Assembly: GCA_964276515.1 (NCBI GenBank)
Contig: OZ193909.1
Span: 15,996,001 to 16,060,000 of the forward strand
Source of the DNA: Gordius albopunctatus
Lineage: Eukaryota
DNA length: 64,000 bases
Direction of reading: 5' to 3'
This document shows, piece by piece, positions 45,301-48,300 of this stretch. The position numbers and the translations under genes are program-made. The notes below the pieces were generated by a model. The model searched no databases. It was given only the letters and a program-made list of their open reading frames with translations, and was not told the DNA's origin. Position 1 is the first letter of the stretch. Every line of letters begins with the position of its first letter.

Positions 45301-48300
45301 GCAGTCAGCTTATATATGTTTAATTTTTCGATAGGCTCAAATCCTAGGATGTTGAAGGCTTCCTAAGAATTTAAAAATTAACAAATGTTAAATATCAGAT
45401 TAAAATTGGCATGAGAATAAAACCCGTAAATCAAAATGTTAACTAAATTACATCGGTTAATCTCATTTCTTCAGCATCATCAACACCTTCAATTGATGTC
45501 ATGCCGTGGGATACGAAAGTGTAATCATGGGGGTCTTTCGACAAAAAGCACTGTTCTGTTGGATGTAATATATTAGTTATTTTAAATAATGTTATGACTT
45601 TTACCTTTAAGACCAGGTATTGCTCCAGACATCATTTGATAAAAAATGTGGTAAGAACGCTCTTTTGATAATTGAAAGATGACTCGAGATTTCTCTAACA
45701 AATCTATGAAAAAATAATTTAGTGATGCTTCATTTTATAAAATTTACAATTTTCAATATCAGCTCCTGCTAACTTCCCTGAAGCGCCAAAGTGGATCCTG
45801 ATAAATTTACCCTATAAATAAAATAACAAATGCTTAAAAATATCTTAATTATATTCGAGAATCGAAAATAAAATTTAAAATAGAAGTAAGAAAATGAATG
45901 GAGATTTAATGGAGTTGAAAAAGAAATGGAGTAATATGAGTTAGATACATAAAAAGTATCTTAAAAAGCATACAGGTGGCTTCGTTTTAAAAACCAAGCT
46001 TTTTCATGTATTGAACTTACAAATCGTGAAGAATTATCATTACGAATAGTTTTAGCATTTCCAAATGCTTCCAAAACTGGATTGGCTTGTACTATTTGAT
46101 CTTCAAGAGAAACACCCTATTAAATGTTTACCAAATCTTAATTATTTGCTTTTCTAATCGACTCAACATTAAAGGACGAACAGAAGATGAGCATCGGACA
46201 TTTACATCTATGCCTTAAAACATTTTAAGGCCCATAACTTTTAACAAAGCTAATAAGTGACACAGGACATGACGACAGGACGCAGATTCAATGTTGAAGG
46301 AATGAAAGACAAGAGTGATGGTGACATTAAGACAGACATAATGAGGAAGACAATCATGTCTTACAAATCGGGACGAATTGTCATTCCTAATAGTTTTTGC
46401 ATTGCCAAACGCTTCCAATACAGGATTAGCTTGAATGACTTGATCTTCTAAGCTACCCTATAACAGCAAACAACATACACTTAAATATGACGCATATATT
46501 GAACGTTTCTATTATTTTATGTACAGATGAATGTAAATGACACAACAACGGACGTGCTTTTGATACAAAAAGACATAATTTAGTATTTTGGATTTGGTAG
46601 CATAACAACATATGAGAGGAGGGGTGCATGTGTGAACATATATAACGAGTTGATAGCCAAATAATTGATACATAGATACTTAAAATATAAAATCATTGTG
46701 AATAAGGAATTATATACATTATCATAAAAAATTGTAATATCTAATGATGTTACTTTTTGACCACTTTTTTGATCAGTTTTTTTGGTGTCGGTCATACCAA
46801 TTACTGCAAAGTATCCTATAACTTTTTTAGTATTTTCAGTTTTCCCTGCACCAGATTCGCCCCTGGAATGCGATAAATACATATATTCATTCCTATGTAC
46901 CTACATTATGTGTCGAGCAATTTTTTAAAGTGTCGTAGGGTTCTAAAATGTAAATTGGTCCTTTTCAAACGCGTGCACATTGAAGGAAAGGACAAACTGC
47001 ATACCGTTTTCATAACACACCAAGATAAGATGTAAACGATATTTGGTAATACGGAAATGACAATAGTACATTAATAATATCAGCTAAGATGCGTGGGTTT
47101 ATATGGAGCTTTGTGGTAAAACATGAAGGGTTGAATCGCGGGTTTATATTGAAAACACCAAACATAAAAACTTACGGTTGCAATTTGCTGTGCACCAGAA
47201 GCAGCAATGGTCGCAAAATACTGGAGACACTTTTTAGTATTCTCTGTTTTACCGGCACCTGATTCACCACTATTCAATATTCACACGTTTAATAAAATGT
47301 ACAGTTTATATTCATTTTATTTATCTTAATCTGCTGTACTAACACTCAACATTAGTTTGACACATGGTTCGTGACGGCATAATGTATACGTTTTCAGATA
47401 AGGCATTTTATAATGTAACAATGTTATTTTTCAGATGGATTGAATACTTGTCTTTGAAAATAATTAGAATCGTAAAAGTATTTCACAAAGAAGTAGACTC
47501 CCATTTCACCAATAGTTATATTAATTGCTATGCAATTTTATTTTAAAGGAATACCTTTTCGAACTATTTTTGAATTAAGGATGCTATCTTTTGGAAAAGA
47601 CATTTACCATTCCAAATATAATGGACAATATTTAATTAATAAGGGATTTTATATGGTTTACGAAACTTAGAGTTGTAATACATAATTTTTAATGGCAATA
47701 ATTACAATTTAGGGCCATTTTTCATTAAACGCTAAAATACAATGACGACATTGTAACATAAACGACGACACATAAGACGAGGCGGGCCCCTGGCACATGT
47801 TTACACACATTAAGAGACGATCATTGATTATATAGACGGCATGATAATAAACATAAACTTACGGCACTAAATTTTAGTTTGTTGGCATCATCCTTTCCTA
47901 ACTTATTCGCCGCTATCGTGGCAAAATACTGTATAACTTTTTTGGTGTTTTCAGTTTTACCCGCACCGCTTTCACCTCTACACAAAACATAAAATTGAGT
48001 AGGGAAAACTAATAAATCCTTAATCATTCATCAGAAATGTATCACTACACTATAATAGACATGCAAAGACAAACAAATTGAAAATAAACTGAAAATTTAG
48101 AAACTGTATAAAAATCCTCTTGCCTTAGGAAGATGCAATAATTAACATATACATGGACTTACGTAATCAAAATGGATTGATTTTCACGATCTATAAAAAA
48201 GCATATAAATTATTTATTTTAAGCTATTATTTAAAACTTTTTATTTAATTGAAACTATAATCAAAAAATTACTACTTACTTGACAACATGTTGGCATAAG

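Follow-up and report, generated by a model that had tools for sequence, protein, structure and literature searches.

Three tandem P-loop/loop-1 exons, a cluster-3 pair, and a catchin-type exon in a muscle myosin heavy chain gene of the hairworm Gordius albopunctatus

A 64,000-nucleotide stretch of the genome of the hairworm Gordius albopunctatus (contig OZ193909.1, positions 15,996,001 to 16,060,000; hereafter, the window) carries on its reverse strand a gene for a muscle myosin heavy chain (Mhc), in which the P-loop, the following helix, and most of loop 1 are encoded by three tandem exons, A, B, and C (Table 1). These are followed by a pair of similar exons, D1 and D2, that complete loop 1 and extend through switch 1, and, far downstream in a rod intron, by an exon of the catchin (myorod) type. 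The two exon groups are precisely the Mhc regions defined as cluster-2 and cluster-3 by Kollmar and Hatje 2014 (PMC3912159), and the hairworm loop-1 cluster is the known cluster-2 in a phylum absent from that survey. Exons A, B, and C are almost certainly real alternative exons. The fuller explanation, that they are old, intact copies, of which one enters each mRNA and sets the speed of ADP release by the motor, is probably correct.

The host gene encodes a class II muscle myosin heavy chain with a predicted length of 1973-1981 amino acids, and its frame is open in all six combinations of A, B, or C with D1 or D2. Its 37 introns have AG acceptors throughout and GT donors in 35 cases; the two GC-AG introns lie at 43301 and 37188 on the reverse strand. 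Short introns predominate, 20 of the 37 being 39-49 nucleotides (nt) long. Over its full length, the protein is 87% identical to XP_065312696.1 of the hairworm Gordionus, with which it groups in a quick tree of 17 rows that included neither nematode nor mollusc sequences; for one rod exon, the Gordionus sp. myosin was the best match at 89%, the other 119 matches listed reaching at most 70%. A tblastn comparison of the exons of the model with the window revealed no duplicated exons of this gene beyond A/B/C and D1/D2. The model is preceded by a spliced 5' untranslated leader, seen in RNA contigs upstream of the ATG exon (approximately 49340-49633, reverse strand). At its N-terminus (49170-49241, reverse strand) are approximately 24 extra residues ahead of the usual start of myosin alignments, an extension that is kept in Gordionus and is possibly hairworm-specific.

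Table 1. Features of the myosin gene, numbered from the first nucleotide of the window
Feature	Positions	Strand	Length (nt)	Remarks
Muscle (class II) myosin heavy chain gene	36332..49241	-		ATG at 49241 to stop at 36332; open frame; 38 coding exons per isoform
Constitutive exon upstream of cluster-2	48163..48190	-	28	RENQSILIT; ends in phase 2
Cluster-2 exon A	47863..47977	-	115	P-loop, helix, long loop 1 ending KFSA; counterpart of Gordionus isoform X1 exon
YGUC cluster downstream of A	47744..47838	-		7 words just downstream of A; candidate splicing-control element
Cluster-2 exon B	47176..47269	-	94	Short charge-free loop 1 (ASGAQQIAT); KKCL helix; RNA joint in 1 contig
Cluster-2 exon C	46754..46862	-	109	Loop 1 of common Lys-containing type; intact splice sites and frame
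Cluster-3 exon D1	46365..46457	-	93	End of loop 1 to switch 1, GSLEDQVIQ...NDNSSRF; RNA joint with D2 skipped
YGUC cluster downstream of D1	46259..46352	-		10 words just downstream of D1; candidate splicing-control element
Cluster-3 exon D2	46021..46116	-	96	10-residue start ... NDNSSRF; pS 0.70, pN 0.09 versus D1
Constitutive exon after both clusters	45748..45811	-		GKFIRIHF...
Catchin/myorod-type exon	39895..40571	-		In 2567-nt rod intron; acceptor 40571, ATG 40494, 200 codons, phase-0 donor 39895
Conserved catchin block	39940..39987	-		16 residues; Ser182 codon (39951-39949) aligns with mussel myorod Thr141

Each of the three cluster-2 exons is flanked by AG and GT, is 3n+1 nucleotides long, and is entered in phase 2, at the third base of a Thr codon, and left in phase 0. 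An earlier reading of the sequence (the original prediction) had given the coordinates, lengths, and peptides of these exons correctly, and its claims that they write the same P-loop in different synonymous codons with shared phases, and that inclusion of two copies would shift the frame, are borne out. The 13-residue P-loop peptide is identical in A, B, and C, with 0 amino-acid differences against 7-9 of 39 nucleotide differences per pair, and the proportion of synonymous differences (pS) in P-loop codons is 0.69-0.78 (Fisher p 2e-6 to 6e-4). Because synonymous sites are saturated while the peptide is unchanged, the three copies are ancient, and selection has acted on each of them as protein. 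Over 77 nt, identity to B is 74% for A and 62% for C. All four multiple inclusions (A+B, A+C, B+C, and A+B+C) lead to a stop at residue 234-241, and skipping of all three to one at residue 197. The loop of exon B is short and uncharged, as had been described, with 0 charged residues and a length 7 residues below that of A, and its helix reads KKCL; the contrast drawn between a mixed-charge loop in A and a Lys-rich one in C does not hold, as both contain 4 Lys and 2 Asp (net +2) and differ in length by 2 residues. As delimited in this analysis, loop 1 spans 12-20 residues across the 3 x 2 combinations with the D pair. In structure, the group has what marks a cluster-2: tandem, similar P-loop/helix/loop-1 exons of similar length that share a frame and a splice-site pattern.

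Transcript evidence was provided by RNA run X1, which derives from a relative approximately 95% alike and was available as low-depth contigs. One contig joins the upstream constitutive exon directly to B (48163|47269); the gap, bounded by GT-AG, measures 893 nt and skips A, and a loose end of 15 letters in this contig reads into an exon further upstream. Exon B of the relative has one extra codon, in frame, and its loop is still uncharged. The count of junctions from the upstream exon, proposed in the original prediction as a check, gave this one B junction and no contig for an A or C junction; no contig of the run lies on A, C, or D2, but depth there is below 10 and contigs drop rare forms, so these blanks are no sign of absence. 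The whole cluster is not spanned by any one contig. The B contig also enters the next intron by 73 nt (47103-47175) with at most one difference, as partly spliced RNA would; this segment is perhaps a conserved intron element, although the conservation is not significant against the background of approximately 5% difference.

Further evidence comes from Gordionus sp. m RMFG-2023, for which two cluster-2 forms are already in RefSeq as automatically annotated isoforms. Isoforms X1 and X2 (XP_065312694.1/695.1, XP_065312696.1) differ at the cluster-2 exon only, 1966 of 1978 columns being identical. Exon A (IAANK...KFSA) matches the exon of isoform X1 (VAANK...HFTA; shuffle p 0.003), and among 105 distinct fetched loops a charge-free loop 1 was found in Gordionus isoform X2 only, like that of B. 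Beyond hairworms, isoforms of one contig of the lobster Panulirus ornatus differ in the same block (columns 196-222), and in read-through frames of fetched records the breaks fall before GESG and behind the loop, a comparison of borders made at the protein level. The lobster isoforms (rows P0133 and P0178) have a long and a short cluster-2 loop, and the long one ends in KFSG, resembling the end of exon A. A deeper homology is no more than suggested, both for A with the long lobster and prawn variant (VIQYFAxIA...KFS) and for C with the common type: the p values (0.020, 0.033, and 0.003) carry no correction for the 45 tests made, one of the tandem records is at odds with it, and a horseshoe crab sequence also scores for A.

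Several observations weigh against mutually exclusive use of the three exons. Each RNA joint, including that of D1 described below, is a single low-depth contig from the one run of the relative, and the short side of the B joint is 28 letters, below the caution level of 30 set by the tool. Because the B contig continues into the next intron, splicing of B to a D exon is not seen in it. Orthology of B with the Gordionus X2 exon is indicated by composition only (positional p 0.47). Neither C nor D2 has a transcript in any source examined, no C-type or D2-type exon occurs in the 4-member Gordionus myosin cluster, and no nematomorph ortholog of exon C was found. The original prediction of mutual exclusion stands in part: it is favored by selection on all three copies, by the B contig that skips A, and by the Gordionus isoforms, while C has never been seen in use. 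The outcome that would have overturned it, in which one variant is used and the others have decayed, can be rejected for two of the three exons; for C, the searches made gave no transcript and no ortholog.

It is worth weighing whether only A and B work as exons, with C a third copy that is silent or in decay. The missing RNA contig is weak evidence in this direction; the lack of a C-type exon among the four Gordionus members points the same way, and so does the finding that the best single-copy matches of C among the 150 representatives listed are generic myosins, with at most 81-82% identity. On the other side, C retains 13 of 13 P-loop residues despite 6-7 synonymous differences from A and from B, its frame is intact, its donor is stronger than 20 of 34 constitutive donors, and its loop is of a type common across fetched myosins. 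A silent C is improbable on this balance, and because of the selection on its P-loop and its intact signals exon C is very likely used as well. That the three copies are an artifact of assembly or of haplotypes can practically be dismissed: no point in its support was found, the synonymous sites are saturated, the RNA and the Gordionus isoforms agree with the cluster, and the DNA contigs support it. A single contig of DNA run X2, which is possibly the source of the window itself, covers 35500-51360 with 5 differences, and a second DNA run covers 46098-47545.

The D pair lies downstream of A-C, outside the region considered in the original prediction, and supplies the end of loop 1. It has the structure of a cluster-3, with tandem exons that run from loop 1's end to the end of switch 1 in the same phases. 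A single contig of the same RNA run joins D1 to the following constitutive exon (46365|45811; gap of 553 nt), skipping D2. Apart from an additional Val in one of them and a VI/IV swap, the two exons are alike, and because of this near-identity the choice between them adds little to loop 1. Both are 3n nucleotides long, and D1 and D2 together stay in frame to the end of the gene; such transcripts would not be removed by decay, so active exclusion is needed. A gene model from Rotaria sp., a rotifer (row P0045), has two tandem cluster-3 units with the same end; if this model is real, cluster-3 reaches beyond annelids and molluscs.

How a single copy might be chosen is suggested by the splice signals. 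Just 4, 2, and 4 of 34 constitutive acceptors score below those of A, B, and C, respectively, and just 3 of 34 constitutive donors score below those of D1 and D2. The six introns of the clusters are enriched in AUGU and UGUC (Bonferroni-corrected p 2e-7 and 2e-5 over 256 words). The combined word YGUC is found 31 times, where dinucleotide shuffles give 13.5 +/- 3.2 (0 of 500 reach the observed count), at a density that none of 137 other overlapping windows reaches, and its clusters follow the first exon of each group, A and D1. One cluster-2 copy is likely spliced into each mRNA, with the acceptors of A, B, and C being weak and the YGUC/AUGU-rich introns probably bound by a splicing regulator, and double inclusions of A, B, and C would be cleared by nonsense-mediated decay. 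In nematodes, exons of this kind are governed by the CELF protein UNC-75 by way of UG-rich elements (PMC3627589), which makes a CELF-type protein one candidate for this regulator. Two points count against this part of the model: the enriched words were chosen after the data had been seen, and neither of the usual CELF cores, UGUU and UGUG, exceeds its dinucleotide shuffles (328 and 321 of 500). YCAY is mildly raised in the region (19.0 per kb, reached by 5 of 148 windows, the region itself included), and a lone UGCAUG upstream of A is at chance level.

Exclusion might instead come about through competing RNA pairings of a docking site with selectors, or because splice sites clash sterically, rather than through a regulator and decay. 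Exon A would be looped out by an inverted repeat of 33 nt (82%; 47295-47327 with 48066-48098), but this repeat is AT-rich and is matched by 2 of 12 shuffles, and none of 15 intron pairs beats all 12 of its shuffles in intron-intron pairing. Steric clash is unlikely because the introns between alternatives measure 593, 313, and 248 nt, in a gene where, as noted, more than half of the introns are far shorter, and the AG-free zones extend for just 20-55 nt. Such mechanisms are, thus, considered unlikely as a whole, slightly less so than a silent exon C, and choice through a bound regulator, with decay of double inclusions, is preferred.

The consequences of this choice can be judged from work on other myosins. 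Loop 1, situated beside the nucleotide pocket, is subject to alternative splicing in the myosins of smooth muscle and scallops, which changes ADP affinity (PMC8629898), and a longer loop 1 is associated with faster ADP release and faster sliding (PMC3912159). The two facts that the original prediction had given as established, the tuning of ADP release by loop 1 and alternative splicing here between scallop striated and catch myosins, are in print (PMC3912159, PMC8629898). The 7-residue difference between A and B equals that between the smooth-muscle myosin chains 1br2 and 8syf in the PDB. By analogy with these systems, exon choice likely sets the speed of ADP release, and the loop variants probably differ kinetically. 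The B motor would be the slowest, force-holding form, a ranking held with somewhat less assurance and based on other myosins, in which ADP release is slowed when the loop is shorter and less flexible. As the original prediction proposed, one gene may supply fast and slow or catch-like motors; the catch reading gains plausibility from the catchin-type exon that this gene also carries, beyond what loop 1 by itself would give. For kinetic work, exon B provides a naturally occurring loop 1 that is short and charge-free.

Loop length, however, does not translate simply into speed. The scallop chains 2ec6 and 2os8 in the PDB, which we take to be the striated and catch forms, differ by one residue in the loop span. 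The two Daphnia loops are of equal length (PMC2257972), and both squid cluster-3 forms are present in all muscles studied (PMC3912159). These observations bear on the possibility that alternative splicing is real but yields motors of nearly equal kinetics, whose variants are kept for stage-specific regulation or for other contacts. Such near-equivalence would fit the equal charge and 2-residue difference of A and C, the sharing of isoforms among squid muscles that differ in speed (PMC3912159), and the title, which is all that was seen of the paper, of a work in the reference list of PMC8629898 on kinetic differences with identical loop 1. It accords poorly with exon B, uncharged as just 1 of 105 fetched loops is and 7 residues shorter than A, and with the altered ADP affinity that follows loop-1 changes in scallop and smooth-muscle myosin (PMC3912159, PMC8629898). 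Near-equivalence is, therefore, regarded as rather unlikely, though less so than the other rivals, and a difference in ADP release remains the favored consequence of the choice.

The catchin-type exon would give rise to a product of 1051 amino acids, with a 200-residue head and an 851-residue rod. Joining of this internal exon to the rod is in frame, and its junction, LE followed by a 14-residue rod start, is shared with six mollusc catchins (Fig. S3, PMC3912159). At 677 nt the exon would shift the frame as a cassette, so it cannot serve as a cassette of the full myosin and would need its own start. A 16-column motif was built from the six mollusc catchin heads alone, for a block picked after the likeness had been seen. 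The hairworm exon matches it in 12 of 16 columns, the best of 127,906 six-frame positions in the window (next best, 9), while the maximum in 318,069 positions of 393 fetched proteins was 9 of 16; the chance of such a match within the exon is approximately 2.5e-8. The block lies 15 residues from the junction, compared to 12 in the mollusc catchins. The mussel head has 156 residues (PMC12040844), as does the mussel row of Fig. S3 when counted by hand, in which 24+44+55 residues and then column 18 lead to Thr141. In myorod, Thr141 is the residue that myosin light-chain kinase phosphorylates (PMC4410989), and Ser182 of the hairworm exon occupies this column, providing a putative phospho-acceptor by position. 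From these likenesses in sequence, the exon is very probably homologous to that of mollusc catchin. The Drosophila myosin rod protein was also considered as a type and rejected, the junction being the catchin one, 851 residues from the end.

Several observations bear on expression of this exon. RNA run X1 has a depth of 1.48 in the bin 40306-40839 and no contig on the 3' part of the exon, where depth is below 10; two Gordionus models in ENA terminate at the rod intron. A search with the head gave no match at E <= 1 in a set of 1098 candidates (351-2000 amino acids), and the head has no Pfam or Atlas match; because known mollusc catchins were missed likewise, these blanks reflect low sensitivity rather than absence elsewhere. 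High-copy repeats at 41670-42000 and 51290-51500 have a summed depth 20-50 times that of the gene in runs X2 and X3, and the first of them lies inside the intron where the catchin start should be. If the rod isoform is made, the gene would yield, like the Mhc genes of molluscs, both a slow motor and a thick-filament protein that lacks the motor head.

Elsewhere in the window, two divergent, apparently single-exon genes for leucine-rich-repeat proteins (28646-31462, reverse strand, and 31678-32628, forward strand) stand in an otherwise intron-dense region. Pfam matches identify an exon of an NKAP gene (20414-20965, reverse strand) and one or more kinesin exons (59110-62454, forward strand), and matches below the Pfam cut-off suggest an exon of a MARVEL-domain gene (10264-10659, reverse strand) and a fragment of a retroelement integrase (26745-27149, forward strand). 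An exact look-up of five frames of the window in a sequence collection returned no entry.

A loop-1 cluster alone would be a modest addition to what is known; the surprise is the presence of cluster-2, cluster-3, and a catchin-type exon together in an ecdysozoan. It is tempting to read them as a whole mollusc-type "catch toolkit" in one hairworm Mhc gene, made up of a slow motor with the charge-free loop, the two cluster-3 exons, and a genuine catchin complete with phosphorylation site; this toolkit would support a catch-like state of the body wall, be ancestral to protostomes, and have been lost in nematodes and arthropods. This reading is doubtful; if it were true, catchin would not be a mollusc invention. 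The body wall of Paragordius is said to have been described in older work as paramyosin smooth muscle, an account that the literature search did not find. A homologous ecdysozoan exon with the same junction and phospho-site position would move the origin of catchin to the protostome ancestor. In addition, hairworms would provide an independent test case for the role of catchin in producing catch, which a 2025 review leaves open (PMC12040844).

Among titles and the starts of abstracts on Nematomorpha and myosin, subscription journals being outside the search, no such cluster was reported, and neither "myosin" nor "muscle" occurs in the text of the Gordionus genome preprint. Among the matches listed for catchin, myorod, and myosin rod protein, likewise as titles and starts of abstracts, none names catchin outside molluscs; published descriptions treat myorod/catchin as exclusive to the catch muscle of molluscs (PMC12040844, PMC4410989). 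The species table of the 2014 survey contains no nematomorph, priapulid, or tardigrade, and its text places cluster-3 in annelids and molluscs and shows catchin exons for molluscs (PMC3912159).

Cluster-2 is known from scallops, Crassostrea Mhc2, Aplysia, Biomphalaria, Lottia Mhc6, Daphnia, Ixodes, and Palaeoptera (PMC3912159). Like the cluster-2 of other protostome Mhc genes, that of the hairworm consists of tandem P-loop/helix/loop-1 copies with an identical P-loop and divergent loops; the cases described in the text of that survey have two copies, in contrast to three here, one with a charge-free loop. The hairworm gene resembles the scallop cluster-2 in structure, with one-per-transcript use established in part. 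Its cluster-3 covers the same region, ending in NSSRF, in an ecdysozoan host. The two forms known in the orthologous myosin of Gordionus are not joined by a C-type or D2-type form. Nematodes, the sister phylum, likewise use class II muscle myosins, but are described, from one sampled species, as having lost all clusters and having several genes instead (PMC3912159), so the sister group of nematodes retains exon clusters missing from C. elegans. The catchin-type exon shares with catchin/myorod the joining of an internal exon to the rod, a conserved basic block, and a hydroxyl residue at the Thr141 position. It differs in its ecdysozoan host and in a head rich in Gly, Asn, and Tyr as well as in Ser, Thr, and Pro; the mussel protein has a rod of 830 residues behind its shorter head, and the hairworm product is one predicted from the gene. 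Crassostrea Mhc2, Aplysia, Biomphalaria, and Lottia Mhc6 have the same three features, cluster-2, cluster-3, and a catchin exon, as the hairworm gene (PMC3912159).

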